A DNA stretch of 53,838 nt, from NCBI GenBank assembly GCA_964555935.1, contig CAZKUN010000018.1, forward strand, positions 1 through 53,838, read 5' to 3'. Positions 1,480 to 31,499 of the stretch are shown here, piece after piece. The stretch's first letter is position 1. Each line of letters begins with the position of its first letter. A program made the position numbers and the translations under genes. Source of the DNA: an uncultured Armatimonadia bacterium. GTDB lineage: Bacteria; Armatimonadota; Zipacnadia; Zipacnadales; VGFC01. Below the pieces are notes generated by a model. The model worked only from the letters and a program-made list of their open reading frames with translations, did no database searches and was not told where the DNA came from.

Positions 1480-3318
1480 ATGGGCAACCCGATGGCACTC
1501 GCTGAGCTGGCGGCTATCATCCTCTGCGCATCCGTTCCTGGAACCGCGGACGTCGCCCAACAGGAGGCCGGTTCCGTGTACCTCAACGACTTCTCGCTTG
1601 TCACCCCCGCTGATGGGATCTCAACAACGCCCGGGCCTGGCCAGTGGCTGTTGGGTGACCTCAACGGCCAAGCCGTGCTCGCCGCCTCGGGCGCCGAGCA
1701 ACTCCCGCCGCTGACCTATCCCGTAGACACGACAGGCTGGCACGACGTGTATGTCGGCCTCTTCACATATGGTGAGCCAATCGATGACGCCGAGTGGCAA
1801 GGCATTCACCTGAAGCTGTCTGGCGACGCGTGGTACACGCACATGTACGGCGGCAAGACCGGCCTCGGGTCCGAGTGGGAACATGGTAGCGTGGACGAGT
1901 TCTACTGGCGGCGCGCCAACTTGACCGGCGAGGACCTCGAGATCTACCAGCCCTACGGTCGTTTCTTCAAGCCGCGGGGCGGGATCGCCTACGTTAAGCT
2001 CGTCCCCCTCACCGACGAGCAGGTCGAGGCCGACACCGAACGTCGAGAGCGCGAGCTGCGCTCCACCCCGCGCAGAGGCGTCGGCGGCATGGCCGACTTC
2101 TGGAGTTGGGTGATGGTCACCCGCAAGACGGATCGCGCCGGCACGCGGGAGGTGATCGACAACCACAAGGCCGCGGGCTTCGACACGATCTACTTCCAGA
2201 TCAACGCTGATGCGCAAGTTCAGTACCACAGCAAGGTCGCCCAGTGGGTCGATCAGGACGCGAACCAGGACCCCCGCACGGGGATGGGGCAAGCCGCCGC
2301 CGAGATTCTCCGCGACCACGATCCGCTGCATGTCGCAAGCGAGCGGGCGCACGAGGTCGGCCAGCGCTTCTTCGCCTGGTTCCGCGTTACCAACGAGCAG
2401 AGCATCAACAACGACCGCCTGGACTACATCCGCAACTTCCGCCACTTGCGGGTGCGCGGAGCGGACAACCAACCGACCCGCTGGCCAAGCCTGGCCCATC
2501 CTGAGATCCGCGACTACAAGCTGGCCATCCTCCGAGAGGTGGTCACCGAGTACCCCCACGTCGACGGTCTTCTGCTGGACTTCCTTCGGACCATGCCCGT
2601 CATCGGCTACGACCCCCCGGTCGTGGCGGCCTACGTTCGCGACTTCGGCATCAGTCCGCTTGAGAACGCCGGCGAGCGCGCCTCCGAGCGATGGAAGCGT
2701 TTCCGTGCCGACTACGTGACGCGGTTCGTGCGTGATGTCCGGAGCATCGCCCAGGCCGAGGAGCGGAGATCCGGCCGCCGCATCCTGATCGCCGTCCGAG
2801 TGACCCCTCGCGACAACCTCTGGAAAGGTCTCGATGTTGAGCGTTGGGTGAGCGACGGCCTAATTGACATCCTCATCCCATCCAACTACTCCATGTTCAA
2901 TCCGCCGTTCTCCGTCGAGCCATTCGTGGCAATGACTCGCGGGACCGACTGCGAGGTCCACCCATGCATCAACCCCTTCTTCGGCGGAGGAACCGATGAT
3001 GCCGAGCACCACCCCAGCCGCCACGAGAAGGAGGTCGCCGACGTCATCTACCAGCGAGTCACGGACGGCTGCCCAACCCATCGCGAGTATACCGAGCGCG
3101 TCCTGGCCCACTACGCCGAGGGAGCCGACGGCATCGTGCTTTACGAGTCGGAGGTTCTCACCAGCCCCACGCGCCTCTATCCCGCGCGCCCCAAGATGCT
3201 GCCCATGTTTCGCGCATTCGCCGAGCCCGGGGAGGCCCTCGAGTATCTAAGCAACCTGCCCCCCCGATTGATCGGACAGCCAATCGTCCGTTCAGGCGCG
3301 TTGCTCTGTCTGCTGTAA
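1480..3318 (+). CDS. Secreted glycoside hydrolase-like protein (GHL10-type TIM barrel), 612 aa
   Basis: GGAGA RBS then ATG 1480; signal-like N-terminus; GHL10-like motifs AGFDTIYF, HPEIRDYKLAILREVV, VDGLLLDFLR, DVERWVSDGLIDILIP. The ORF track's 1198 start is overextended. Confidence 0.7.
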   Translation: MGNPMALAELAAIILCASVPGTADVAQQEAGSVYLNDFSLVTPADGISTTPGPGQWLLGDLNGQAVLAASGAEQLPPLTYPVDTTGWHDVYVGLFTYGEPIDDAEWQGIHLKLSGDAWYTHMYGGKTGLGSEWEHGSVDEFYWRRANLTGEDLEIYQPYGRFFKPRGGIAYVKLVPLTDEQVEADTERRERELRSTPRRGVGGMADFWSWVMVTRKTDRAGTREVIDNHKAAGFDTIYFQINADAQVQYHSKVAQWVDQDANQDPRTGMGQAAAEILRDHDPLHVASERAHEVGQRFFAWFRVTNEQSINNDRLDYIRNFRHLRVRGADNQPTRWPSLAHPEIRDYKLAILREVVTEYPHVDGLLLDFLRTMPVIGYDPPVVAAYVRDFGISPLENAGERASERWKRFRADYVTRFVRDVRSIAQAEERRSGRRILIAVRVTPRDNLWKGLDVERWVSDGLIDILIPSNYSMFNPPFSVEPFVAMTRGTDCEVHPCINPFFGGGTDDAEHHPSRHEKEVADVIYQRVTDGCPTHREYTERVLAHYAEGADGIVLYESEVLTSPTRLYPARPKMLPMFRAFAEPGEALEYLSNLPPRLIGQPIVRSGALLCLL

Positions 3319-3443
3319 TTGCCGTACCGTGCGCGACGACGCGCAGCTTGCCTGTCTGCGAATTCGCGTTGATCGCGGCGGCGTCTGTCCCGGCGGTGTC
3401 GGTGCTGGACGATCTTCCTGGCGCATTTCGGGGGGGGGCAACA

Positions 3444-4925
3444 ATGGACACCACGGGGCCCGGCGCTCACGGCGCCTGTAGCGAGGAGCATGTCCGCGTC
3501 GACGGGAAGTTCCTCGCGAGAGGATCCGAGCGCCTGCGCCTGAAGGGCGTTACTTACGAGCCGTTCGCTCCTAACGACGCGGGCGAGGCGTTCCCGACGC
3601 AGGATGACGTCTCAGCTGACTTGGCCCGCATGACGGCGGCTGGCATCAATGCCATCCGCACCTACTACGTGCGTCCCCGGTGGTTCCTCGAAGACCGGCA
3701 GCTACAGTCCGATGCGCGACAGGCAATCTCAGACGCTGTCGAAGTCGGTCGCCATCACCCAAGCGTGGCCGCGCATAGCATTGCCAACGAGATACCGACC
3801 GATGACTGGTTCACGGACGGCCACCAGATCGAGGATTGGTGCGTCGGCATCACGTACGCCGACCGCGAACCGAAGGCCGCTTATTACCCTCTCGGCGGCG
3901 TCTGCAACTCATCACCGTCCGAAATGCTCGACAAGACCCCCAGCGCCTCGGTTGTCGTGTGCTCCTACAACGGTGGCGAGACCCTCGACGAGTGCTTGCG
4001 CTCGCTGGAGCGGCTGGACTGCCCAGACTATGAGGTCGTGTTGGTGGACGACGTAGTCGCCGAGCACATTCCAGTATGTAACATGGCCTTCCGGCGCGAG
4101 GTCCTGGAGGGGATGGACGGGTTCCACCCGACATACCGCACGGCGGGCGACGACGTCGACATCTGCTGGCGCGTGCAAGAGTCCGGGCACTGGATCACCT
4201 ACGCGCCAAGCGCGTTTGTCTGGCACCATCGACGCCAGACGCCGGCGGCGTACATGAAGCAGCAAGCAGGCTACGGTGAGGCCGAGGCTCTGCTTCGGCT
4301 CAGACGCCCGGATCGCTTCAACACCCGGGGCGACGGCCAGTGGGGCGGCGTGGTATACGGGTGCGCGAGCGGCCATTCTGACGGCGGGGATGTTCTCTCT
4401 GTCACTCGCTGTGGCCTGCGCCGGAGCCTGCCAGGCGCACCTGGCTCCACACCACGACGGACTCGTCTCCCGGATGATCGTCGCGGCCCTTTACCTCGCG
4501 CAACCGGTCGCCCGGGCGTGGGGCCGCGTCGCCACGCGCGTGAGCATCTATCGGCCGCCGCCGGGAGCCTCTTCCCCCGCTGCTCCGAGGGAGCGAATAC
4601 CGTTCAGCGGCTGGGGCAAGATCTGCTACTGGTCGGTCGATTGGCACGAACGGACCGAACTCCTGCAGGAAGTGCTGGACGAGTTGCGTGACGGCGGCTG
4701 GACGGTCACGATCGACACGCGCCGCGCTTCCTGGGACATGCGCATCCATTGCTCTCCGTGGACAGGTCTGCAGATCCGTACCGTCCAGGAGGACCACGGT
4801 AGCGGCAAGCGGCTCATCTGGGTCAGGCATCGGCTACGCCTAACGAAACTCGGCATGGCGGTCCTGTCGCTCGGAGCGGCTGGCGCGGTATCGACGCTCG
4901 CGTTCAATCCAGTTCCCGCCGCCGC
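3444..4925 (+). pseudogene. Internally deleted GH2-like TIM barrel + GT2 glycosyltransferase fusion gene
   Basis: Recognisable blocks VDGKF..KGVTY, GINAIRTY, ANEIP, SVVVCSYNG, AEHIPxCNMAFRR, GDDVDICWR, QQAGYGEAE. The GT2 core is missing between VVLVDD and VVAEHIP, and the frame changes near 4360. 3' end approximate. Confidence 0.75.
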
Positions 4926-4989
4926 CAGTTTCAGGCCCTCGCCGACGAGGCCGTCGTGTCCTCGCAGTCCGATACCGTGCTGCGAAGCA

Positions 4990-5690
4990 CGTGCGATCCG
5001 ATCGGGGGTTTGACCACCGCCGCCCGCGCGGCCATGGTCTTGTGGGTCGGCGGGCGGGCCGTGTTGGCTGGGACGATGTCGCTTGGGAGCCTCCTCGTCT
5101 TCCTCGCTTATCCCAGGACCATGCAGGGCGCCTTCGGCCGGTTAATGCGCACGCATGGCGACCTGAAGCGCGCCGAAGCGTCCGTCGAGCGCATCGTCGA
5201 CGTGCTGGATTCCACCGACGAGATCCTCGAGACGCCAGGCGAAGGCGTCGCTGTGCGGCTCGAGAACGTCACTTTCGGGTACGGTGACGACCACCCGGTG
5301 TTGAGCGGCGTGTCGATTGAGGCTCGCGCCGGCGAGAGAGGCGCCACGCTGAGCGACGGGCAGAAGCAGCGGCTCTCCATCGCCCGAGCATTTCTCAAAG
5401 ATGCTCCGATCATCATCCTCGATGAGCCTACTTCCGCCCTCGACGCCACCACCGAGGATGCGCTGGTCGACACGCCGTCTCGCCTGGCGGCCGGACGAAC
5501 GACGTTCAGCATCGCCCACCGACTATCAACCGTCCGTCGCGCCGACCGGGTCGCTGTGCTGGACGGCGGGCGAATCGTCGAGATGGGCACGCACGGCGAG
5601 CTGATCGCCGCGGAGGGTGCGTACCAGCGAATGCACGCGGTGCAGCAAGGACCGCTGGAGGTCGGGGGGGGGCGGGGAGGTGACGCGCGC
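4990..5690 (+). pseudogene. Remnant of an MsbA-like ABC exporter (most of the TMD and the Walker A region deleted)
   Basis: Last TM segment (GTMSLGSLLVFLAY), LENVTFGY, then IEARAGE jumps directly to RGATLSDGQKQR (signature mutated to LSDGQ), IIILDEPTSALD, IAHRLST. No P-loop. 5' end approximate. Confidence 0.8.
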
Positions 5691-6898
5691 GTGAGAATCG
5701 CCCTCGTTTCACAAGCCTACCCGCCCGATACCGGCGGCGGAGGCATTAGCACGCAGACCCACGCCAAGGCGCATGGCCTTGCGGTGATGGGGCACGACGT
5801 GCACGTCATCTCTCACAGCACCGATGCGGCCAGACAGGAGTACCTGGACGGGCAGGTCTACGTCACGCGCATCCCTGGCTTCGACGCCCACCTGCCGATC
5901 TGCTCCGGGGCCGTCCGGTGGCTCACTTACAGTTCGCAGGTCGCCGCAGCCATTGCGGAGCTTCACGCCGGGAACCCCCTCGACTTGGTGGACTTCCCGG
6001 GATACGGTGCCGAAGGGTACGTTCATCTGCTGAACCGAGCGGAGTGGAATCACATCCCCACCGTCCTGCACCTGCACGGACCATTGGTCATGTTGGCCCA
6101 CACCATCGGGTGGCCGGAGGCGGACTCGGATCTGTATCGTGTAAGCGTCGAGATAGAAGGGATCTGCATCCAGAAGGCCGACGCGATCCTCTCGTCCAGC
6201 CGCTGCTCGGCCGAGTGGTGCGCCAAGTGTTATGGCCTGGACCCGGAGCGCGTGCCGATCATCCACACGGGCATCGATGCCGAGCTGTTCCGGCCGCTTC
6301 ATGTTCCGAAGGACGATCGCTCGACCATCATCTTCGTCGGGAAGCTTGTCGCCAATAAGGGCGTCGAGGACTTAGTGAGCGCGGGCTGCCGATTGGCCGA
6401 CGAGTTCCCCGGCCTGCGGATCCGCCTCGTGGGCGGAGGTGACGAGGGCATGGCCGACCGCCTGCGGGCCGTCGCCGGAGAGTCCGGGAAGTCCGAGTTG
6501 CTGGATATCGTCGGTTTCGCGGAGCAGGAGTCGCTGCCCGAACTCCTGTCGCGAGCGCATGTCTTCGCCGCACCCTCGCACTATGAGAGGGCCCCGGCTT
6601 CGTGTACCTTGAGGCGATGGGATGCGGGTTGCCGGCGGTTGCGTGTTCGGGTTCGGGTGCAAGTGAGGCCGTGTTGCATGGCGAGACGGGGCTGCTCATC
6701 CCGCCGGGAGATATCGATGCTCTAGCGGCGGCACTCCGCCAACTCCTTGCCGACCCCGCCGCGCGAGACGCCATGGGACGCCGCGCTCGCGGGCACGTGG
6801 TCCGCCACGCCAGCCGGTCGGAATGCCTGCGCCGACTCGAGGCGTTCTACGCAGAGCTGACAGACCGCAGCCATTCCGCGGGCAAGGTAGAGCCATGA
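5691..6898 (+). pseudogene. GT4 (GT-B) glycosyltransferase with a 2-nt frameshift; ~401 aa if repaired
   Basis: GGAGG RBS and GTG 5691 (MRIALVSQAYPP, FVGKLVANKG). The E-x7-E motif YEGPGFVYLEAM is broken by an extra AG in GAGAG at 6585-6589; the C-terminus lies in ORF 6602-6898. Confidence 0.8.
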
Positions 6899-7080
6899 GC
6901 ACTTTGACCACGCGCATATTGCAGGGCTTCGACGACCCCGCATTTGGGCGCCGGCAGTGGCAGGATCTGCTGGAAGGCTCGCCCGCGAATCACATCTACT
7001 TGACCTGGCACTTCCAGCGCGCGTGGTGGGAGACGTTCGGAACGGGCCGGCTACTGCTCATCCTGGCGGAGGTTTCCTAG
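6895..7080 (+). pseudogene. N-terminal fragment of a CelD/BcsL-like GNAT acetyltransferase
   Basis: ATGA overlap with the GT4 stop; WQDLLEGSPANHIYLTWHFQRAWWETFG resembles the N-terminus of this family; stops after 61 aa. Confidence 0.6.
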
Positions 7081-7445
7081 GGTTCACCTTCCACTTTGTA
7101 GCAGATGGCCATGGGACCCACGAGCGCCTCGGCGCGGCGGCCGAGCAACTCGGGATCAGCGTGGGCGAGGGCGTGGTGGGCGACGTGCAGTACAACTGGG
7201 CCAACGAGCAGCTTGAGCTGGGCATCGGCCTCGGCGTCGAGGGCCCCGGACTCGGGCCGCTGGGGTCATCAGCGAAGGGCCTGGACGTGCTGAGGATCGG
7301 CGGCGACCACATCGTGGCCGTCGGCTTCCGGGAGAACATTCAAGCCGCCGTCGCCTCGCCGTTCGCAGGCGTTGACGTGGATCTCTCAGACGAGTACGTC
7401 TGGGGTGCAAGCGCGGGCAGGCCCGACCTCGCGGCGTGGCACTAG
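7060..7445 (+). pseudogene. Orphan 3' gene fragment, Gly-rich, unknown function
   Basis: Open frame with coding-like codon usage (GFTFHFVADG...LELGIGLGVEGPG...DLAAWH*) but no start or RBS; joined to the GNAT fragment. Confidence 0.4.
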
Positions 7446-7514
7446 GGACGGCAACGCCACTGTGTCGAACTATGGCGAGGTCTGACATTACGGTTGCTGT
7501 GAGAGGTGTGGACA

Positions 7515-10500
7515 GTGGGTGCAACTACAGCCTTCAGAAAGACGCAGATTGGCCGGCGACTCCAGCAGTTGGCCGATGCCGACGAGTTCACGAACGAACT
7601 CCTGGCGGAGGTCACCCGCATCGTTCGCAAAGTCACCCCGATACTGGACCGTTATGCATCGGCCGCGCCGACGTTCACGCGACACGATGCGTCGCACGCT
7701 CTCAACGTGCTGACGCTCATGGGGAACATCATCCCGGAGGACACGCTCAATCAGCTTGGCGCGCTCGATCTCGCGCTGCTAGTCCTGTCCGCGTACCTGC
7801 ACGACGTAGGCATGTCCCCGCCGGAGGACGAGATCGGCAGGTTGGGGTCACTTCTTGACACAGGAGGCACGGAGGAGTGGGATGGCCATGGGCCTGAGCT
7901 GGCCGCGTTCCGCGACTACTTGACCGTGCGGTGGCACGTGCCCGATCCGCCCCTCCGCAAGAGCGTCGCTGCACGAGAACTGACGAACCGTCGATGCTCG
8001 ATAATCACAGATTGGGTCCGCCAGAACCACGCTGCGCGGTCATCCCAGGCGATAGACCACTATGCCACTCGCGACAGCGACCCGTGGCGACTGACGTACC
8101 GCAGCTACGACTACCGCGATCTCTTGAAGCGCGTCTGCGCCAGCCACGACCGCCCCACGGGCGAGCTGAGTGGGCACGACTTCCAGATATTCGGAGTGGG
8201 GGGGGCGGTGATGAGCGTTGCTCCCCCCGGTACGTGGCACTCGCTCTGCGCGTCGCCGACATTCTCGACGTGTCGCCGGACAGAGCGCCAGAGGCCCTAT
8301 TCCACCACCAGAACGTCACCGATGTCCGGGCCATCGCGGAGTGGCGGAAGCACCAGGCCATCACCCGATTCGAGGTCACTAGCGAACGCGCGGCATTGGA
8401 GGCCCACCCGCGACGGGCATTCGTGCATGCAGCACTTCTGCAGACCATCGCCGGAATCGAAGAGGAGATCCGCAGGTGCTGGCGCGTAATCAAGGAGTGC
8501 AATGACATCAGTGCCGGAGAGGGCCGGTACCGGTGGACGCTGTCGGAGATCGTTGAGCAACGGATCACGCCACACAGCCACCGGTACGAGTACTTCGACG
8601 CCGCGTTTCGACCGGATACGGAGCAGATCCTCAAGCTGTTTGCGGGCTCGGGCATGTACCGGCACCGGCCCTGGGCGGCCTTGAGAGAGCTCATGCAGAA
8701 CGCATTCGACGCGGTGCGGGAGAAGCAAGGGCGAATGCGCCTTGCGGCGGCCATGCGGGGCGACGGCCCCGAGGTCTGGGGCCACCTGGGCCTGCAAGAG
8801 CGCGTGGACATTTATATAGAGATCGACGCCAACGGCGGCGATCTGTGGCTGGTATGCTCGGACACCGGGGTGGGCATGGAACGGCGCCACTTCGAGGAGT
8901 ATATCGTGCGGACCGGTCGTAGTTCGACCGACAGCCTCGACATCGCCCGGCTTCGGAGGGAGTGCAATGAACACGGCGTACCGTTCGCGCGGACCAGCAA
9001 GTTCGGCATCGGCGTACTCTCGTACTTTATGATCGCAGATGAGCTGGAATTCACCGCGCAGCGCGATCAGTGCTGCGCCCCAGCCGAGGGGCCACAATGG
9101 CGGTTCACAACACAAGGTATTGGCTCCTGCGGCGAACTCACGAAGGGGGCAGCGCAAGCCGTTGCAGGCACCACGGTCCGGCTTCGAATCAGACCAGAGT
9201 TGTGGCTGCAGCTCGGCTTCCCCCACTGGGCGAGGGATGAGTGGAACCAGTGGTACGACCCACCTGATGTCGACGGGCCTACAACCAAGGAAGCCCTGCA
9301 GGCCGTTTCTACCAGCGTTGCCGGGGCCGTCTGGCGGATGTTTCGCCGCGTGCCCTGCCGAGTTGTGGTGCGCTTGCCGGGGGGGGCAAGGAGTTGCGGC
9401 TGGACCCCGGGTGGCTACGCGCTGAGAAGCACGTGGCCGAGGGGGTCTCGCAACAACTTGAGAGGGTGGGGCAACGCACGGCGCTCCACCCCGGGTTCCG
9501 ACCAACCAGTGACGAGCAGGCGCGGGCGGACGCGTCTGAGAAGGCTTGGGAAGAGGCTTGGAGGCACACGTCCGAACAGGTCCTCAGTTCGCTGCGTGTA
9601 TATTCCATCCGAGCTCCTGAGGGGAACGACGGAGACTTGGGAGCGCATGTGCGCATCCCTTACTTCGAGCTGGGCGAGGATGGCGGCAGCCAAGTCTACC
9701 TGCGGTTGCAGCAGGACGACCTTGGGGTTGTGGTACGCCCACTTGCCGGGCTTCTGCACGGTTACCTGTACGAGGGGGGCGACACTCTGTCATACCATGG
9801 GGCGCACGTCACCGACGACCGCTATGACCCCGACCACGAGGAGCCGAGCCCGCCGTACGCGGCTGGCATCGATATCGTGTCCGAGGCGCTTGCGTCCATA
9901 GCCCCTGACAGGTTCGCGGTAGAACTGAAGCGCCCGCAGTATGACGCCCAGGTGGGTCCGACTGTCGCGAAGGCGTACGGGGATTTCATCGGGGCCCAGA
10001 TCTCCCCCATGTTCCGTGCCGTGTCGCTCGCCGCCACACGAGCAGTCGGCGGGTGGCCTGTAGGTGACGATGCTGACCTCGGCGAGGTCTGGTGGGCGGT
10101 CAGGTCAGAGAACGAGGGCGCCCCGGAACTTCGATGGGAGAAACTGTGCGGCGAGTTCGTGAAGCCACCCAGGCGGATTGTCCTGCCCCAGGGCGCCGGT
10201 GATTGGCCACGACTGCGCACGGTCATCTCCGGCGTGGGGGAGTCGTATCGTGTACTAGGAGCCCTCAGACTGCTGCACCAGGGGTTCGCGATGGGACACG
10301 CGCTGACACTCAGAGACGTTCGCGTCACCCGTTTCCTGGCAGCGCGCGGCATTCCAGGCGTCACACATGCAGTTCCCTTGCCGCTGGTCACGCCGGCGGG
10401 CCGCCCCGACGAGATGCCAAGAGGGGCGAGCGCACCTGAGGAGTGGGCTGCAGTAGCGGTGATAGGGGCAGTCCAGGTAGCCGACCACCCCCTGACCCGG

Positions 10501-10869
10501 GCTTTCGGGATCGTGCCAGCGGAGACCGGACACATCAATCCCGAAGAGCTTCTGCGAGACCCCGAAGGCCTGGCGCGCGCCATCATCTCGGGCTGGTTCG
10601 TTCCCTACAATCAGGTCGCGTCACGGGCTGACAGTGAACTCCGCCGCACGTGGGGGCTGTTGGAGCGGGCGTGCGGAGAGGGACTGCCCTACATTGCGAA
10701 CTGGAGTGTCCACGGCCTTGATATCTACACACGCACCGGGGCGAAGCGCATCGCGCATGAAGGAGCTGAGTACGGGGAGTACCTGCCTTGGCCGGATGAC
10801 CCGAAGTGGACGGCTGATCTGGAGTTCTGGGCAAAGGACATAGAGCTGCCGTGGTCGGACGGCCGCTAG
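7515..10869 (+). CDS. HD-phosphohydrolase (HD-CE-like) + Hsp90-like GHKL ATPase + unknown C-terminal region; split into three ORFs by two G8 tracts; ~1118 aa if both are restored
   Basis: GAGAGG RBS then GTG 7515. HD motifs FTRHDASH, AYLHDVGM, NHAARS, CASHD, LRVADILD, EWRKH. GHKL boxes LRELMQNAFDA, DTGVGM, SKFGIGVLSYF, GTTVRL. Frame changes at G8 8198-8205 and G8 9379-9386. Confidence 0.8.
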
Positions 10870-10982
10870 CCTGGTTCCATCGCGCTCAAGATGCACGCCG
10901 CCGAGCAGAGGAGTATGCCGAGGAGTTGCATCGGCCGGATGTGGTGAGGGAGAGGGTGAGGCGGTTGCTGGCGGAGGAGTGA
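10870..10982 (+). pseudogene. Possible C-terminal remnant of another gene
   Basis: Reads ...AEEYAEELHRPDVVRERVRRLLAEE* (TGA 10980-10982), resembling the HRPDxV tail I recall from some WD40-repeat proteins; no start. Confidence 0.3.
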
Positions 10983-11042
10983 GAGGGGTTTGGGAGTGCA
11001 TCGGCGAGGGCGCCGATGCTACGCGGGGGGCGAGGCGCGACG

Positions 11043-11069
11043 GTAGGGAGTGATGAATCACGCCCCTAC
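11043..11069 (-). repeat. GTAG-type REP-like palindrome
   Basis: Minus strand GTAG-GGGCGTGAT-TC-ATCACTCCC-TAC; imperfect hairpin led by GTAG. Confidence 0.55.
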
Positions 11070-11229
11070 GAAAGTGATCGAGGGTGTGGTCTGGCGGCGC
11101 TGGAGACGCAAGCTGCGAGCTTCCCTGGGGCCAGCCGGCATGGACGGGAAGGGCAACGGCCGACGGGCTGGAAGGGAAACTCACAGAGTTTCCACGTCAC
11201 TACGCGAAGGCATTACGGAGGGATACGCG

Positions 11230-12066
11230 ATGAGACTTGGCGCGAATCTGTACGGAGACTGCAGCACGCCAGAGAAATGGGTTGCTGAACTGGCCAGGAA
11301 GGGCTACTCGGCGGCGTTCTGTCCGGTGGGCCCGGAGGCGACTGACGAGACAGTTGCTGAGTATGAGCAGGCGGCGAAGGAGAACGGCATCGTCATCGCC
11401 GAGGTCGGCGCGTGGAGCAGCCCCATCAGCCGGATCGATGAGATCCGAGAGGCCGGGCTGAAGCGGTGCATCGAGGGCCTGGCGCTGGCGGAGAGGATCG
11501 GCGCGAACTGCTGCGTGAACGTGGCGGGCTCGCGAGGCGAACCGTGGTTCGGGCACGATCCGGAGAACCTCACTGAGGAGACCTTCGAGCTGATCGTCAG
11601 CACGACGCAGCGGATCATCGATGAGGTCAATCCCACGCGGGCGACGTTCACGCTCGAGACGATGGAATGGATGTACCCCGACTCGCCCGAGAGCTACGCG
11701 AGGCTGGTGCGAGAGATCGATCGGCCGGCGTTCGCGGTGCACTTCGACCCGACCAACCTGATCCTGAGCCCGCACCACTACTACCGGAGCACGGGAATCA
11801 TCGAGGAATTCGTCGCGAAGCTCGGGCCGAAGATCAGGAGCTGCCACGCGAAGGACATCTCGATGAGCCACGAACTGACGGTGCATCTGGATGAGGTGCT
11901 GCCGGGCCAGGGGAACCTGGACTACCCGACATTCCTGAAACAGATCGACACGCTCGAGCCGGACGTGCCGCTGCTGATCGAACACCTGACGACCGAAGAG
12001 GAGTTCGACCAGGCCGCGAAGTTCATCCGCGAGACGGCGGAGACGTGTGGGGTGGAGATCGTCTGA
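11230..12066 (+). CDS. Sugar phosphate isomerase/epimerase (xylose isomerase-like TIM barrel), 278 aa
   Basis: GGAGGGA RBS, ATG 11230; metal-ligand motifs LETM, HFDPTN, CHAKD, PGQGNLDY, LIEH. Confidence 0.9.
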   Translation: MRLGANLYGDCSTPEKWVAELARKGYSAAFCPVGPEATDETVAEYEQAAKENGIVIAEVGAWSSPISRIDEIREAGLKRCIEGLALAERIGANCCVNVAGSRGEPWFGHDPENLTEETFELIVSTTQRIIDEVNPTRATFTLETMEWMYPDSPESYARLVREIDRPAFAVHFDPTNLILSPHHYYRSTGIIEEFVAKLGPKIRSCHAKDISMSHELTVHLDEVLPGQGNLDYPTFLKQIDTLEPDVPLLIEHLTTEEEFDQAAKFIRETAETCGVEIV

Positions 12067-13404: not shown

Positions 13405-16400
13405 CTAGGGCGCCTTCCATTTCACGTTGCGGAACTTGGCGCCGGTGCTGCCCCATGAATAGAGCGCGAACGTGCCGCTCTCGAGCGTTTCGTCAGTGAT
13501 CTCGAACTCCTTCTCGCCGTCGATCCAGACCGACATGTTCGAGCCGTCGAGCACGACTCGGAGAGCGTACCAGCGCCCCGATACAAACCCCGTGGCGTTC
13601 TGCGAGACCACCTCGTACTCGTCGCCGTTCTTGAGCGCCAACACGCGGAAGCTGCGCTGGCGGTCCATGGTGAAGAGATAGTGGTGCTCGCGGTCGGCGA
13701 ACCTAAACGCGATGCCGATACCATCGTCATCGGCGGACGAGATATCGAGCGAGACCTCGCCGTCGGTGAAATCAGCCCCCGGCGCGAAGGCGCGATACGT
13801 TCCCGGGCGCTCGACGAGCGGATCCAAGTTCCCCGCCTCGCCGAGGAAGTGGTTGGATATCTCGGCGATGATTCCGTTGTCGAGCGCCCAGTTGCTCTCG
13901 GGCGGACCGGCGCCGGGGGTGTCATGCACCTGCCAGTCATCGCCGCCAAGCGGGATGATATCGGGATCGATGATGTACGATCCCGAGCTGGTTGGCCCCG
14001 CAACGCCATCGCGGAAGACGCGCGCGGTGAGCGTCGCGCTCTCGGTCACTTTGACCGATCTCGCGTAGCGCTTGGACTGGCGCGTGGGCGAGGTCCCGTC
14101 GAGCGTGTAGCGGATCTCCCCGGCTGGATCGTCGGCTGAGATGCGGACATCGATCGAGCCGCTGTCGGCGGCCTGGACGGGATCGACACGCGGGGACCTG
14201 ACGCCGTAAGGCTGGAGCGCTATGGTGGCCTTGATGAGATAGCTGCAGCGACAGCGGTTGGAGGCCTCGGGGACGAGTAGCATCCCGCCGACGGGCAAGG
14301 CGTTGATCCAACACCCGGGGCGGATGCCGCCGTAGTTTTCGGTGCCGACGTTGGTTGTGAGATCCCAATAACCAAGCGTCGCGGAGCGGTAGGCGAGGAG
14401 GTTCTTAGAGCCCGCCAGGATTCCGCATCCGTAGGAGCGCGTGAGGTTGAAGTCCTTGCGCTCGCCCGTTCGCAGATCCCACGCGCCGGGCTGGGCATAG
14501 ATCGTGTCATCGTTGATCAGCGGCCGGCTGGCGTAGGCTTCCTCCACATCCCAGATCCGGGCGCCATCGTCCGGGTTGAAGGCGCTCATCCGACCGCCAG
14601 CCTCAGACGCCAACCTGAAGCGAGTCGCCTGATACGACATCAGGAGGATGTTGTGCTCTTCACTGAGCGCGAGCATCGTGCCGTAGATGTCATCTTCGAC
14701 GCTCCACAGCGCATCGCCCGTGTCCGCATCGAGCGCGACAAGCTTGCCGGCGGGGTGCTCGGTCTTGTCCTCTTTGTCGCGGTCGCGGACGGCGATCGGG
14801 CGGTCGAGAAGGAAGACCTTGCCATCTCCGACGGCAATGGTGTTGATGCGCACGGAGTGCTCGGGCTGATAGGTCCACTTCGTCTCGCCGGTCGTGGCGT
14901 CAAGCGCGAACAGGAGCGCCGATTCGCTGTATATCAGGCTCATGTCGGACTTGACGAAGGCGAAGGTAACCTGATGCGCCTCGTTGTAGAGCGACCCGAA
15001 CAGCGTGCCATCCGCGCAGGAGATGTAGCCCCAGCGCGCGATTGATCCGTCGGGCTTGGGCGGGGCGGTTAACTCGGCGACCTGCTCGCCGCTCATCACG
15101 TCGATCACCGCGCACTTGTTCTCGTGCCTCGCGAAGAGCTTGCCATCGGCGATGCATATATTGCTGCCGGTGACCGCGACGCCGTTGAGGTGTTCCTGAT
15201 CGTACGGCTTCAATATGCCGGGCAGAGGGTGCTCCCACATCTGCGTTCCGTTGTACGCATCGACCGCGCGGATGGCATCGATGCCCTCGACGATGAAGAC
15301 GCCATTCCAGAACAGCGGCGACGGGCCTCGGCCATGGCGCGAAGGCATGACGAGCGTGTTGTCGGCATACCAGAGCATCCCGAGCGGGCCCTTCACCTCA
15401 TCGGTGGAGCACGCCTCGTTGCCGGCGTTCGCGTACTGATGTGTCCACTCGCCGGCGCCCTCCAGCGCGCCGCGCGTGTCGAGGGTCATGCTGCCGGGCT
15501 TGCCGACGCAGATGACGCCCCCGTAGGGGCGCTGCAGGCGCTCGCGCTCAAGACGCGACCCCGGTGCCTTGCCACCGGTGACCGATTCTCCCGAGACGAC
15601 GAGATTGGCCAGAAGATTTGGCAGCGTGGTGTTGCCGGGCTTGCGCTGAAGGACCGTCACGCGCGTCCCATGCAGGCCGGCCGAATCAAGGCGCTCGCGT
15701 GCCGCCGCAACGTCCTTGGCGTCGGCATCGATAGCGTAGATATTCAGCTCCGAGCGCTTGGCCAGCTCATAGCTGAGGCGACCGTCGCCGCAGCCTATGT
15801 CGACGCAGTACCCGACTGTGATACCCGTCCGCTCGATGATCTCATCAGCGGCTTTGGCGTAGATATCATCCTCGCCGTAAGGGTCGTCGTCTACGGTCGG
15901 CTCGCGCTTCGCCGGGGCGGTACCCGTGGCGGCGCCGAAACAGTAGATCGTGCCCTGGTCGGTGGTGACATACAGCCTGCCGCCGGCCGCCGCCAGACCG
16001 AGCGGGAGCCCGTCGACACCGGCGGTCGCGGTCACTTCCTGAGAGGCGGTGTCGGCGACCACGATTCCGCCGCCGGAATCGCTTCGAACGCCGGCGACGA
16101 CCATGTCGCCGGCGCCGATGAGCGACGTGCCGAGGGTTCCCTCGGCCTCGATCGTCCAGAGCGGGGCGCCGAGGGCCTTGGTCTTGATGGGAGCGCCGCG
16201 CTTGTCGACGGCGTCTTTCTCGACGATCAGCGCGGACCGGCTGACTGCACTGATTGTGGACTGGTACGCGTAGACGATGTGGTCCGGGTAGACGGCCATT
16301 GCCGCGGATGGGAGGCCGCGGGCCAAGCGGTCGCCGCCGTCCGTGCGGAAGACATCGAGTTCGTTCACGAAGCAATCGTCGACCGCCGTTACGAACGGCC

Positions 16401-19786: not shown

Positions 19787-19861
19787 TGTCCCTCTCTGAA
19801 TCTGGTATTGCTAATCCAGTACAACCCCGGACCGCGCCCGGATACTCCCCTCTCACGCGAA

Positions 19862-24345: not shown

Positions 24346-24466
24346 TCACCTCACAGACGTATATCGACAGCCCGCCGGAAGAGCCAGGCGGGCGATGATT
24401 CCTGTCGGCTAGCGCCGCTCTGGGTTTTCCCCCATGGAGCGTGAAGTCCTCTAACGAACACGGCAG

Positions 24467-24556
24467 GCCGTCTGTAGGAGGGGTTTCAACCCCGACGCCG
24501 TGGCAGCGTTCGAGGATGAACGGATGGTCGGGGTTGAAACCCCTCCTACAGACGGC
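24467..24556. repeat. REPIN-like doublet: perfect 30-bp inverted repeat of a GTAG-type REP
   Basis: GCCGTCTGTAGGAGGGGTTTCAACCCCGAC (24467-24496) and its exact reverse complement (24527-24556) around a 30-nt spacer. Confidence 0.9.
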
Positions 24557-26810: not shown

Positions 26811-29800
26811 TCAGGCTTCGTCGTCTGTATCCTCGTCGGGATCGTCCTCGGCGTCTCCGCGTATGTACGCGCCGAAGCGCCCGTAAAGGAATGCCACGCC
26901 AAGGAGGATCAGCCCGAGGACGCCGAACGAGATCATCCGGTGCAGCGATCCCAGTTTCAGGAGGCGCAGGTCGTATGCGAACAGCTTCGCGAGCGCCAGC
27001 CCGAAGAGGCAGAGCGATAGCCAACGCGATGTGGCCTGGCGAGCGGACACACCCGCGGCCAGCCATCCCGCAGCGTAGAGTGACCAAACCACGGAGATTG
27101 CGACATGGCCCGCGTGGTGCCAGTTGGATGCGGATGGCCACTGGGTGTGGCGGAAGAAATGGAACGTCTCCAGCGTCAGGGCGAACAGCGCCAGCAGCGC
27201 CCCGCTGACGGAGAAGTAGCCGGGATTGGCCAGCGACTGCTCGCTAGCGGAGAGGTCGTCGCGATACCTATGGACCATCCAGGCTATCAGCGCAACCGTC
27301 CCGACCACCAGCGCCATGGCGAGGGCTCGGGCGTTGAGGAATGGCAGCCAGGCCGCTTTGGCTGAGGGCATCGACACGGCGAGCGCGAGCGCGGCTCCGC
27401 AGATCCATGTCATCGACGCCGTCCAGCGCAAGGCCTCCAGACGCCATCTCAACCCGAGCGCCATGCCCGCGGCCGACGCAACGGCCCATACGGCCGCGAC
27501 CACGCACCATCCGGTGAGCTGCCAGTCCGTCCCCGAGTCGCCGCCGTTCCAGTGGACCATGCTACGAGCTTCGACGGTCGACGCCCACACCGCCAGCACC
27601 ATGCCGGTGACGGCAAAGACCGTTGGCGTGAGGACGTGGCGCTCGTCTTCCGTGGCGTCGCTATCCTCGTTCAGGTACATCCACGCGGCCAAGACAATCC
27701 CGCCGAGCCCGAGCATCGCGGCGAGCATGCGCCAGTTGATGAACGGTATCCAAAGCTCGTTGTGGGAGAGGCTACCTGCGACCAGGGCCGTCCCGACCGC
27801 CCCGGCCCCAATCGCGAAGCCAAGGTAGCGCAACGGGCGCATCCGCCAGGCCATCCCGATTCCCACGCTCGTAATCCCGAGCACCGCCCACATCGCCCCC
27901 AAACCTAGCCACGTCGGGAGTGCGAGGTCTGTACCCACGGGGGAGGCGACGTCGAAGATACGACAGACCTCAATCGACAGCCAGCAGGTAACCAGCACGC
28001 TCACGACCACGGCGAAGCCGCTGGTCGCCATGAATGAGCGTTCCCCGTCACTCAGTTTGTCGCCGGTATGGTGACGCACGAAACCGATCGCCGCCGTGCA
28101 GGCGATGAGGAGGATGAACGCCAACCCGCGGAAGCTCACAAAGGGCGTCCACTCGGCGCCGAAGGACGGTGCCGACACGCATAGCCCGGTCGCCACTGCA
28201 AGTCCCCAGAAGGCGCACCCACACCAGCGCAAGGCCGGGAGCCGCAAGGGAATCCCGGCAAGGAACGTCAGGAGCCCGAGAACGACCCACATGCCCGTCA
28301 GCGCGAACCACGTGCCGTAGGTCCGATCGAGGCCATCAGGCATCGAGACTCCGAAGACACGGGTGACCTCGATGGTCAGCCACCAGGTCACCAGCACGCT
28401 CGCCAAGACCGCGAAGCCGCCAGTCGGGAGAGATGTGCGTTCCCGCTCGCCCATCTTGTCTTCGGCGTGATGCCGCACGTAGGCGAGGGCCGCCGTGCAG
28501 ATGATGAGGAGGATGAACGCCAGCCCGCGGAAGTTCGCGAAGGGCTCCCACTCCACGCCAGAGGACGGAATCGACACGCACAGCCCGGTCGCCATCGCGA
28601 GAGCCCAGAAGACGCATCCCCACAAGCGCAAGGCCGCTAGCCGCAGCCCGAGGCCGACAGAGAAGGTCAGCAACCCCAGCACGACCCACATTCCCGTCAG
28701 CGTGAACCAAGTCCCGTAGTTTCGGTCGATGCCGGCAGGCACGTGGATGCCGAAGGCGCGCGTGACCTCGATGGTCAGCCACCAGCCAACCAGCAGGGCC
28801 GTTGTTGCGGCAAAGCTGCTGACGGGCATCCCTTCGCGCTCGCCATCGCCCATCCGCTCGCGGTGGATATGGCGCAGTAGCCCAATCCCAGCCGCGCCGA
28901 CTATCGCCAGCACGAACGTGAACGTCCGCAAGCTCAGGAAGGGAGCTCACTCGGCTCTGAAGGACAGCACGGACACGCAGACCATCAGCACGATGGCTGC
29001 CCCCCCGACCGCCGACCCCGTCCAGTGCCACGCCTGTGCGCGTCCATACAGCCTGATCAGCGCGTAGAGGACCGCGCAAGCCATGGCGACCATGGCCGCG
29101 GCGAACCATGCCTGCGGCATCCATCCGATCGCCCCCACCAGCGGCCCGTGAGCGACGATGCTCCACATCTCCTCGGCCAGACCCGTCGCCGCGACGACGC
29201 CGGCCGCCGCCGCAAGAGCCATCTCAGTGCCGGACTCGATCGTCCCACGCGCCCAGCGCTTGAGCGTCCCCGAACATCCGAGGGCTGCGGCGACGACCAG
29301 TGCCGCGATGAACCGCGGATTCAGCAAGCCAGGCCAATCGTACATTACGGATGATCCTCCCAGCACCACCGTCGCGAGTCCGGTGCCGAGGAGTGCCGTC
29401 ATGGCGATCTCATACACGAACTGCAGCCTCGACCGCAGTCCCACGCCATACACGACCGAGATGATGGCGGCCCATGCCGCCCAGATGCAGAGCCAGGCGG
29501 CGCTGCGCCAGTGGGGGTGGAAGGCCGGGAACCACGCTTCGTGGCTGAACGCTCCGAGAATCTCACGCGCCGTGAGCGCGCAGAGCGCAATGCCAGAGGC
29601 CAGCGTCATCACGCCCGCCGTCGAGCGCTCATCGTCGTCGGCCTCGCTGAGCTTCAGATACAGCCAGGCGGTTGCTGCCGCGGATCCGGCGAGCACGAGG
29701 TAGAGCGCGCCGCGCTCGTTGATCAGCGCCAGGTCGTAGGGCAGCGTCACGCGCGCGTCGACCCACACCGTGTAGCACGCCGCCAGTCCCCAGACACCCA

Positions 29801-31499
29801 GGCCGGCGCCACGCAACTCAGGGCGCTTGCTGGCGAATCCCAGCGCCACCAAAACGGCCGCTTCCGCCGCCCAGGCCATCGCCAGCGGATGCCCGCCGAC
29901 CAGCAGCGGGAAGCCTATCGTCAGGAACGCCAATCCCATTCCGAGGTTGCAGTAGAGGAGACTCTTGTCATTCGGCAGACGCCTGACCGTCTCGATCAGG
30001 AGCCCGGCGAAGAAGGCGGCCAAGATGAACGCCAGCGCCGCGCGGTGCCACCGAGGGTCTCCGGGGAGCATGTAGAGCGCCGTCGTCGAGTACGCAACGG
30101 TTGCGAGGGCCACCAGCGACACGTCGGCCCAATCGGCTACTTTCCGCAGGCGCAAGGCGTATAGCGAGCCGATCCCGACGAACAGGACGAAATTGACGCT
30201 CAGGAACGGCAGGACGGTCCAAAGGAGTCCGTCGTTGTATTTGCCGATGAACCACGAGACCAGCAGCACCAGCGTGGCGACGAACGAGATGAGGTTCATC
30301 TCCCGCCAGCGTCTGAAGGCCGACACGGCGAGGATGCCACCGTTGAGACACGTCACGTAGGCCCAAAAGCGGATTGCATAGTCTGGCCCGCCGTGGGAAC
30401 TCTTGAGCAGGAATGGCGTCGCGAACCCACCGAGGGTGGCCAGGAGGATCAGCGCGCGCGAATCATGTCTCACCGACATGCCCGCGCAGATCGCCGTTAC
30501 GACGGCCATCAGACCGAAGGGCAGGAGAATGTCGGCGAACAGGCCGTACCGTATGGCGGCGGCCCAGATGCTCAGGTAGAGCACGCCGACGCCCGCGCCG
30601 GTCAGGCCCTCCGGGTACCAGCTCTCGGTGCGCTTGCGCGCCAATTCGGCGGCCCCAACCATCCCCAGCCCCAGCACCACGCCAAGCGCAACGCGCCCTT
30701 CCGGCTGGATGAACTTCCATCCGTAGGCCAAACCAAAAGCCGCCGCGATGAGGACCAAGCCGGAACCGGCCCATAGGGCCAACTTGCCGCCGATCAACGC
30801 CTCCCAATCGATTGCCTTGCGTGCCTTCCGTTTGCGCGGCGCGGGAGTCGAAGGAGGACGCGCGGGCTCAGGCTCGCGGGCGACAGACGCGGCCGGCCTG
30901 ACGGGTTCAGGCTTCGGCTCAGGCTGAACGACCGGAGGCGGTTCAGGCTTCGGTTCGGGCTCCGGGTCAGGCGGCACGACCGGAGGTGGCTCGGGCGCGA
31001 CCGGAGGAGGCGCGACCGGCTCGCGAGGACGCAACGCCTTGCGCATCTCCTCGGCGGCCTGCTTCCGGTACTTCTCCGCCGCGCGAGCGGACGAGGTTTC
31101 CGGCATCGACACCGGCTTGCGCGCTGCTGGCTTAGGGGCATCAGCCACGGGCTCGGGCTGCGGTTCGGGATCCACTTCGGAGAGTTCGACGGCGGGTTTA
31201 GACGCCGGTTCTGCCAGGGGAGCATCGACCAGCGGCGGCGCGAACCGGGAGTCGTCGGGTTCTGACGAACCGAGGGCCGCCTCGAGCGCGCGGACTTTCT
31301 CGCTGAGTTTGGCCACTTCATCCTTGGAGCCGAGGTCACGCATGGAGTCGCGGAGCTGCGTGACGTACCGTCCTAACGTATCGACCTCGCGCCGGGCCGC
31401 GCTCGCGTCAGAACTCGCCTTGATGAGGAGGAAGATGACGATGAGGACGACTGGCGCGACGATGAAGACGCCGACTCCGAATACCCACAGTCCACCCAT
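26811..31499 (-). CDS. Giant DUF2339-family polytopic membrane protein interrupted by one in-frame TGA (28947-28949); 1562 codons if read through
   Basis: GGAGG RBS; N-terminal TM, coiled coil, Pro-rich linker, then DWEALIGGKLALWAG and LATLGGFATPFLL; C-terminal KLFAYDL..L....RMISFGVLGLILL. ORFs 28947-31499 and 26811-28931 are in the same frame. Confidence 0.85.
27950..29010 (-). repeat. Intragenic 399-bp (133-aa) tandem repeat units
   Basis: Matching blocks 399 bp apart: GCCGTGCAG at 28093/28492, GTGACCTCGATGGTCAGCCACCA at 28363/28762, Trp-position codons at 28149/28548/28947. Outer limits approximate. Confidence 0.85.

Follow-up and report, generated by a model that had tools for sequence, protein, structure and literature searches.

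A single-chain HD-CE/Hsp90-like ATPase gene in an uncultured Armatimonadia bacterium, interrupted by two −1 frameshifts at G8 runs

The contig CAZKUN010000018.1 from an uncultured Armatimonadia bacterium (53,838 nucleotides; analysed whole and referred to here as 'the window') carries near its start a locus, 7515..10869 on the + strand, that we read as one gene: a member of the HD-CE/Hsp90-like ATPase family encoding a single chain of ~1118 residues, which has probably been inactivated by two −1 frameshifts at runs of eight G (G8), and whose intact relatives would act in defence by a sensor–switch–effector route. The predicted order of domains runs from a set of N-terminal helices through an HD phosphohydrolase of the active type and a Bergerat ATPase of the Hsp90 class to a transducer (middle-like) domain and, last, a C-terminal region that evolves fast. 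The combination of HD and Hsp90-like domains is itself already known and not new.

A list of open reading frames (ORFs) gives three overlapping entries for the locus, all on the + strand: 7506..8489 (frame 0), 7931..9901 (frame 2) and 9394..10869 (frame 1). Three-frame translation places both changes of frame exactly at GGGGGGGG runs, 8198–8205 and 9379–9386, each amounting to a −1 shift, such that a ninth G at each run yields a single continuous reading; starting from the GTG at 7515, the joined reading comprises 1118 codons, with its stop codon at 10867–10869. This GTG is the likely start of the gene, in preference to the GTG at 7506 taken by the ORF list, and has a Shine-Dalgarno-like GAGAGG 8 nt upstream (7501–7506). 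Segment 1 (7515..8205, frame 0) encodes the N-terminal helices and the first ~150 positions of the HD-CE profile; the first G8 run then shifts frame 0 to frame 2. Segment 2 (8192..9386, frame 2) encodes the last ~100 profile positions, with the motifs RVADILD and WRKH, followed by a linker and the Bergerat ATPase with its N, G1 and G2 boxes; the second run shifts frame 2 to frame 1. Segment 3a (9394..10065, frame 1; tail residues 1–224) combines a conserved PGW motif with two long helices and an alpha/beta lobe, resembling a GHKL transducer or Hsp90 middle domain, and segment 3b (10066..10869, frame 1; tail residues 225–491) comprises a beta-rich lobe and a C-terminal domain of helices plus a hairpin. 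An earlier note on this DNA, made from its letters alone, had joined the three ORFs into ~1118 residues and reported a full set of HD metal ligands, intact GHKL boxes and a likeness to HD + Hsp90-like proteins; the three-frame translation and codon count agree with the first of these, and the domain searches described below bear out the others.

The Pfam HD-CE profile (PF24391), in which we take 'CE' to stand for 'conflict effector', is divided by the first break: ORF 1 matches positions 2–153 of 263 with 95.8 bits, and ORF 2 positions 160–262 with 63.6 bits, against a cut-off of 27. Every HD column that is invariant in the family is kept in the window's piece (H60, D61, H64, H99, D100, G102, R172, H175, C211 and H214), and the RVAD motif is present in segment 2; no match to the 'inactive' model, iHD-CE, was reported for the window's pieces in Pfam at E ≤ 0.1. 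With all of the invariant metal-ligand residues in place, the domain appears to be of the active rather than the iHD type, and is the sole candidate effector in a protein of this kind. The HD piece is 40% identical to residues 3–210 of the nearest relative, P0001 (E 5e-46).

The ATPase that follows is recognised by Pfam only at the border (HATPase_c_3 on residues 247–377 of ORF 2, 25.0 bits for a cut-off of 25), while retaining the invariant columns of all three boxes: E166, N170 and D173 in the N box, D224, G226 and G228 in G1, and F271, G272 and G274 in G2. We assign it to the Hsp90 class because a profile of the family matches the N-terminal domains of Hsp90, TRAP1, HtpG and GRP94 (E 3.6e-17 to 1e-14), and because the NCBIfam HSP90/HtpG models match the N-terminal ATPase part. 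These last matches cover the ATPase part only (positions 27–170 and 5–177 of models NF010683 and NF003555) and miss the whole-protein cut-offs widely, scoring 57.5 bits where 455 are required and 43.6 bits where 371 are.

The ~490-residue tail, described in the earlier note as unrecognised, does stay without a match when searched alone in Pfam, NCBIfam and PADLOC, or in a word-indexed search among longer proteins; an exhaustive phmmer search returned only the window's own 410-residue gene call, and the ESM Atlas gave nothing usable (the Atlas's own model having a predicted local distance difference test score, pLDDT, of 0.29). Set against other members of the family, the same tail proves to be collinear from end to end with residues 616–1129 of P0001 (21% identity, pairwise E 1e-11), to align over its first ~215 residues with a Sorangium protein (E 4e-6), and to be collinear with the ~550–830 region in eight of 120 members at E < 0.001, with many more at weaker E; its alignment with P0004 was without significance. 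G6, W7, G136, R173 and W234 are invariant in an alignment of 60 tails, and F91, P254, F347, P348, W351, N362 and W472 nearly so. We read the tail as the family's own C-terminal ~500 residues, conserved across its members rather than peculiar to this gene. It is also the part that diverges fastest: its identity to P0001 is 21%, where the HD piece reaches 40% and the ATPase piece 45%.

An AlphaFold2 model of the tail, built from the 60-sequence alignment, has a pLDDT of 82.3 and a predicted template-modelling score of 0.83. When scanned with VIA-align against 48,161 chains, the top 18 rows were second domains of GHKL proteins only, with Z between 4.5 and 6.9 on a scale where values below 8 may reflect common arrangements. 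The best match was MORC3 (Z 6.9, 88 residues aligned), with TRAP1 (Z 6.0, 129 residues aligned, model residues 6–229), MutL (Z 5.9), MORC2, topoisomerase VI-B and ParE also among the top rows; the middle domain of HtpG (Z 5.0, 185 residues aligned, model residues 3–309) and GRP94 (Z 4.9, 187 residues aligned, model residues 4–346) superpose over longer stretches. Foldseek against the PDB gave no match at E ≤ 0.001, either for the full-tail model or for a model of its C-terminal piece. Tail residues 1 to ~220–300 may, at these modest Z values, represent the transducer or Hsp90-middle-like domain of a GHKL ATPase, a reading we favour because the VIA-align list is uniform and because such a domain is expected after a Bergerat fold.

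Residues 225–491 were also modelled alone, from an alignment of tail-only homologue references, and gave a mean pLDDT of 72.8, rising to ~90 for residues 120–255 of the piece (the last domain). The best VIA-align match to this model had a Z of 2.8, within a scatter of small helix-turn-helix and helical matches to which no fold could be assigned. No solved fold matches the last ~190–270 residues of the modelled protein (the range varies with the end point taken for the middle-like domain), and we regard them as a candidate sensor or oligomerisation part. The proposal of a new sensor domain is accordingly narrowed: the first half of the tail looks like an ordinary GHKL transducer, and it is the remainder that stays a candidate. 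Its end of helices plus a hairpin suggested a diverged form of the winged helix-turn-helix (wHTH) repeat found in actinobacterial relatives, an idea that we reject at the level of sequence profiles; a hidden Markov model of that repeat (built from up to 150 of 216 actinobacterial copies) reached a best full-sequence E of 0.081 on 58 tails, with an hhalign probability of 0.07%, and PF24410 (wHTH-HSP90_Na-assoc) has no Pfam match on the window's tail.

The family is large and patchily distributed, and is catalogued by domain models only. At least 367 proteins match the middle piece of the window's protein at E ≤ 0.001 (8000 candidates scored), most of them 1000–1150 residues long with the same layout, tail included; HD-CE (PF24391) is present in all 120 members listed, whose lengths range from 743 to 1167 residues, and the median length of the stored family set is 1075. 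The top three relatives (1130–1158 residues) are 43–45% identical over 98–99% of the middle-piece query. Source names include Bryobacteraceae, Thermoanaerobaculia, Poribacteria, Herpetosiphonaceae, Sorangium, Symbiobacteriaceae, Burkholderiales, Phycisphaeraceae and Prosthecobacter, to which the homologue loci add Competibacter, Bacteroidia, Solirubrobacteraceae, Thorsellia and Methanosarcina; the phyla represented are Acidobacteriota, Myxococcota, Chloroflexota, Planctomycetota, Verrucomicrobiota and Actinomycetota, together with Gammaproteobacteria and a Methanosarcina contig.

In a set of 80 genome loci the majority of proteins were actinobacterial and longer (1300–2200 residues). A Pfam scan of 19 proteins, three of them controls of the window's own type and 16 actinobacterial, found iHD-CE (PF24401) in 14 of the 16, a caspase head in nine, a TIR head in two and several wHTH-HSP90_Na-associated repeats (PF24410) in 15; an inactive-type HD goes together with a further, added effector. 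Judged by the head, the HD or iHD, the ATPase and the C-terminal make-up of these relatives, the family is therefore modular: an effector head, an (i)HD, an Hsp90-like ATPase and a variable C-terminal array. We also saw tandem caspase–iHD-CE–Hsp90 paralogues at two loci (L062 and L065) and, at a third, a second HD-CE start directly after the first family gene (L126, 4828–5355).

Homologue loci fetched for a study of gene neighbourhood number 86 (80 metagenome, one viral, five genome), and 61 of them hold the gene as a single ORF of at least 980 residues. In at least ten the gene is divided among two or three ORFs, its tail standing apart from the rest, and the breaks in these split homologues lie away from long homopolymers. 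At eight of the 86 loci (L093, L104, L108, L122, L137, L144, L153 and L158) the tail is a separate downstream ORF, and these ORFs cluster with one another; gene decay, misassembly or a genuine two-gene form of the system could each account for them. Clustering of 483 neighbouring ORFs revealed no partner gene: the biggest cluster (eight loci) gathers the tail pieces of genes that are split, the second (six loci) includes ABC-type ATPases, and no neighbour family other than pieces of the gene itself recurs at more than six of the 86 loci. The gene thus stands alone, as had been proposed.

When the 150 nearest neighbours from 53 loci were compared with PADLOC, 15 of them, at 13 loci, matched at E ≤ 1e-5. 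Four of these are generic by Pfam (FtsK, two ABC ATPases and a methyltransferase), which leaves 11 proteins at nine loci: a restriction enzyme of the HaeIII type, an HNH protein, an AAA_14/DUF4143 protein, a caspase and a trypsin-like protein that adjoin a ThsB-TIR gene, a type I restriction subunit, a PtuA-like protein, a DUF488 protein, a KAP NTPase, a STAND protein and a PtuB-like protein make up the curated neighbours. Pfam alone adds SLATT_2 and SocA, and mobile-element or phage genes adjoin the homologue in nine of 53 loci. As a control we took 93 ORFs lying at least 5.5 kb away, from 31 of the same loci, which gave three raw PADLOC matches. The raw comparison (15/150 near, 3/93 far) has a two-sided p of 0.075 and a one-sided p of 0.039; the curated one gives p 0.033 at 11/150 against 1/93, or p 0.14 against 2/93 if a distal kinase match, kept without a Pfam check, is counted. 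A conflict or defence role is nonetheless a reasonable reading of what the family's sequences offer, because relatives carry caspase and TIR heads and because some homologues adjoin restriction, Septu-like, TIR/caspase, KAP, STAND or mobile-element genes. The suggestion that the locus is a candidate defence system survives in this form, for the family; around the window's own copy there is no recognisable island.

For intact members we envisage that the C-terminal region would sense an invader or stress signal; that ATP binding and hydrolysis by the GHKL domain would then serve as the switch, probably with dimerisation as in Hsp90, MutL and MORC; and that the HD effector would hydrolyse a phosphoester in nucleotides or nucleic acid, so that the infected cell or the invader is stopped. 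These three roles are inferred, along with the nature of the HD substrate and the defence function itself. A 2026 preprint by Li, Burroughs and Aravind states that, as shown earlier by that group, the place of STAND NTPases in tripartite effector–switch–sensor systems can be taken by NTPases of the HSP90- or HSP70-like kind, and lists an HD phosphoesterase among the effectors (10.64898/2026.10.19.760177). A full-text literature search found no paper that uses 'HD-CE' or describes the architecture, though supplements of papers from the Aravind group may do so; the main text of two of that group's eLife papers (2020 and 2021), as far as it was available, makes no mention of Hsp90, GHKL or HD-CE.

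The closest comparison is with the HD-CE (PF24391) proteins of ~1000–1150 residues themselves (such as P0001–P0003 and the Sorangium 'HD domain-containing protein', P0068), which have the same full-length domain order, 40–46% identity in the HD and ATPase parts and a collinear tail with invariant residues in common; only the window's copy is split at two G8 runs, and its tail is just ~21% identical to that of its nearest relative. The actinobacterial caspase/TIR – iHD-CE (PF24401) – Hsp90-like ATPase – PF24410 proteins possess a homologous HD-type domain and ATPase (26–36% identity in the latter) and share the logic of effector, NTPase and C-terminal array; their HD, however, best fits the 'inactive' model, a separate caspase or TIR head is present and wHTH arrays occupy the C-terminus, whereas the tail of the window's family is without wHTH. 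The Hsp90 chaperones HtpG, TRAP1 and GRP94 are closest in the sequence of the ATPase, and the first part of the tail model superposes on their middle domains, but the window's protein has an N-terminal HD enzyme, misses the whole-protein cut-offs, and in its last ~190–270 residues has no match to the Hsp90 C-terminal dimerisation domain by VIA-align or Foldseek. 

MORC- and MutL-type GHKL ATPases, which Iyer et al. reportedly linked in 2008 to restriction and defence systems, combine a Bergerat ATPase with a transducer, as the window's protein may; MORC3 is the best fold match and the proposed role of an ATP-driven switch is alike, yet the ATPase in the window is Hsp90-class by sequence and shares one chain with its effector, for which there is no separate gene. 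HD-superfamily enzymes also act in immunity, through SAMHD1, bacterial nucleotide depletion of the dGTPase type, and the HD nucleases of Cas3 and Cas10. What the window's protein has in common with these is a metal-dependent HD phosphohydrolase as the (here putative) immune effector; no specific relationship was detected, the HD-CE profile being nearer to PDE5-type enzymes and exopolyphosphatase than to dNTPases or Cas HD domains, and the PADLOC models of the dGTPase type did not match the window's protein.

Turning to the two breaks, the earlier note had treated them as something to be repaired. If they were errors of sequencing or assembly, with homopolymers under-called, the organism's gene would be intact; at both, one base is indeed lacking from the gene's longest homopolymers, the classic signature of such an error. 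The stretch is present in 20 listed runs, none of them of RNA, that come from 13 metagenome studies (marine, seawater and hydrothermal vent), and we compared contigs from four runs of four studies over 3000–11500, at a depth of ~4–9. A contig from the first of these runs (X1, which may itself be the source sample) spans 7377–9566 and hence both G8 tracts, with no differences and no gaps. A contig from X2, of another study and another year, spans 8238–9451 without a gap, and so has G8 at the second tract as well; a further X2 contig reads through the same G8 at the first tract and the C beyond it, stops there at 8206, and falls short of the 31-letter rule for bridging a tract. Wherever a tract could be read, in two studies dated 2017 and 2021, it was G8, and no indel is listed for the contigs of any of the four runs, although at a depth of 4–9 minor variants of tract length would escape notice. 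The second frameshift is real in the dominant genotype, and the first very probably so, on weaker support. Since the G8 lengths are reproduced by independently built contigs (X1 at both tracts, X2 at the second), we consider the error explanation very unlikely; what keeps it in play is that the sequencing platform of the runs is unrecorded, such that a systematic error could be shared. With at least the second frameshift real in independent contigs, and the first consistent with them, this copy is probably not expressed as a full-length protein.

That the copy in this organism is a recent pseudogene is, in our view, likely, because G8 recurs in contigs of a second study, and because two −1 frameshifts coincide with a position at the edge of decaying polysaccharide genes. 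The decayed stretch, 3348–7445, corresponds to the gene debris of the earlier note, and its lesions are covered gap-free by contigs of other runs: the Pfam match of a GT2 glycosyltransferase gene jumps from profile position 35 to 164 (an internal deletion), the upstream ATP-binding cassette (ABC) ATPase retains only positions 100–137 of 137 and has lost the Walker A region, a GT4 gene is frameshifted near 6590, away from any long homopolymer and covered without gaps, and a ~60-residue N-terminal fragment lies at 6823–7080. Lesions of these other kinds (internal deletions and a frameshift outside homopolymers) suggest general decay, and the frequent splitting of family members elsewhere also counts for it.

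An alternative view of the tracts is that they are hypermutable slippage sites in a phase-variable contingency gene, caught here in its OFF state, with rare G9/G9 cells expressing a costly defence protein. Poly-G tracts in phase-variable glycosyltransferase and restriction genes are well established in other bacteria. Only four G runs of eight or more occur in the 53.8 kb, all on the + strand and within 3430–9386, in a window where G6 is found four times, G7 never and C runs reach at most seven; both breaks fall exactly in such runs, and with no G or C run of eight or more in any of the 86 homologous genes, the G8 tracts are peculiar to this locus. The other two runs are G9: one at 3430–3438, 6 nt before the ATG at 3445 that starts a GT2-like ORF, and one at 5664–5672, between the end of the ABC-ATPase ORF and the GGAGG and GTG start (5691) of the GT4 gene, where the ABC frame continues into the GT4 frame. 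On the same view these runs would tune the neighbouring glycosyltransferase genes before 3445 and 5691 likewise, and two X1 contigs do break at the G9 run 5664–5672. Both tracts would have to change to restore the frame, however, making ON cells very rare; no length variant is listed and G8 stands in two studies (with the proviso that contigs at a depth of ~4–9 drop rare variants); and the upstream genes are broken by lesions of other kinds. Phase variation is thus unlikely, and we retain the recent pseudogene as our preferred reading of the copy.

Beside the locus itself, the flanks at 7150–7456 and 10937–11124 are matched by contigs in several runs at ~93% identity (20 differences in 307 nt), and these contigs turn into unlike sequence at 7456 and around 10997–11037. 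Related strains may therefore share the flanks and differ in between, and the HD-CE gene could be a strain-variable insert; direct repeats as marks of insertion were sought in the flanks and only short, weak pairs were found, such as 7491–7510 with 10962–10981 (80% over 20 nt).

Several points weigh against the overall reading of an inactivated member of a defence family. On the defence side, the enrichment of defence neighbours is weak and at most suggestive, with borderline statistics and a control drawn from the same loci; many homologues adjoin housekeeping genes, for example ftsZ, purL, sodA and groEL; among the 13 ORFs within ~15 kb of the window's gene, PADLOC finds only generic ABC, methyltransferase and HEAT matches; and PADLOC-DB 2.0.0 has no model for the protein, returning only RT_UG24 (E 0.031 and 0.0019) over the HD-like region, a weak match. 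The literature search found no experimental work on any member of the family. As to the domains, the fold matches of the tail all lie below the Z 8 mark, and the solved sequences nearest to the HD profile (PDE5-type cyclic-nucleotide phosphodiesterases, E 7e-4, and an exopolyphosphatase, E 0.004) match over the H..HD region only and give no HD substrate. On the side of inactivation, the 1118 codons contain no further stop or lesion and keep all of the invariant residues; both lesions stand in the same codon phase (NNG GGG GGG GC); and the second tract is followed by an unusually stable hairpin.

This hairpin, long and imperfect, lies in the mRNA sense at 9391..9460 on the + strand, a few bases 3' of the second G8. 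Its minimum free energy is −45.4 kcal/mol (z −5.2, with none of 200 shuffles as stable), or −53.6 kcal/mol (z −5.3) with the G run included, and the 85-nt stretch that begins at 9371 comes 9th in fold stability among 21,502 such stretches, both strands counted. A G run, a spacer of ~6 nt and such a hairpin, with both sites in the same phase, both of them −1 and no other lesion in the gene, bring to mind programmed recoding: a low level of full-length protein made when ribosomes shift by −1 on G GGG GGG, or when RNA polymerase slips and adds a G, which would keep a dangerous effector scarce. The first site, by contrast, has no downstream structure (z −0.17), and nor do the two G9 tracts (z −0.56 and +0.74). 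G-only slippery heptamers are poor shifters in general, and known polymerase slippage uses runs of A or T. The zero-frame ORFs continue for 284 and 515 nt past the two sites, two successive low-efficiency events would leave very little product, and the feature is seen in no homologue (86 genes); we consequently hold recoding to be highly improbable. In a broader form, the G8/G8 allele would be alive, with both G GGG GGG sites serving for recoding or slippage, a self-harming HD effector present at trace level or switched on in rare cells, and the last ~190–270 residues then forming an unseen sensor fold of an Hsp90-type immune switch; this we find very doubtful.

Elsewhere in the window the encoded products include glycoside hydrolases, a sulfatase, fucosidases and two-component proteins. 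A hybrid histidine kinase at 32418–35271 (− strand) lies in two ORFs, split inside HATPase_c (positions 2–63 and 66–110) by an apparent frameshift. At 26811–31499 (− strand) two adjacent ORFs encode DUF2339 membrane proteins of 706 and 850 residues, with a C7 run at 29000–29006 near their junction; they may represent a single gene that has been split, or else a tandem pair. Among 85-nt RNA folds, the window's most stable ones reach −62.9 kcal/mol and are found at 24461–24476 (on both strands), ~19809–19834 and 16044–16086; the first two are intergenic and terminator-like, and the third falls within a 1345-residue PQQ/methyltransferase ORF.

The window's copy, being broken, adds little to the question of switch and effector; it serves instead to illustrate the decay of genes of this kind at homopolymers. 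For the family, the analysis narrows the unexplained part to the last ~190–270 residues, which together with the arrangement of G tract plus hairpin are the only unexplained remainder of this locus. Intact members could reveal whether an Hsp90-type ATPase serves as the switch of a one-protein immune sensor, as STAND ATPases do in Avs/NLR proteins, and could also reveal what the HD domain cleaves.

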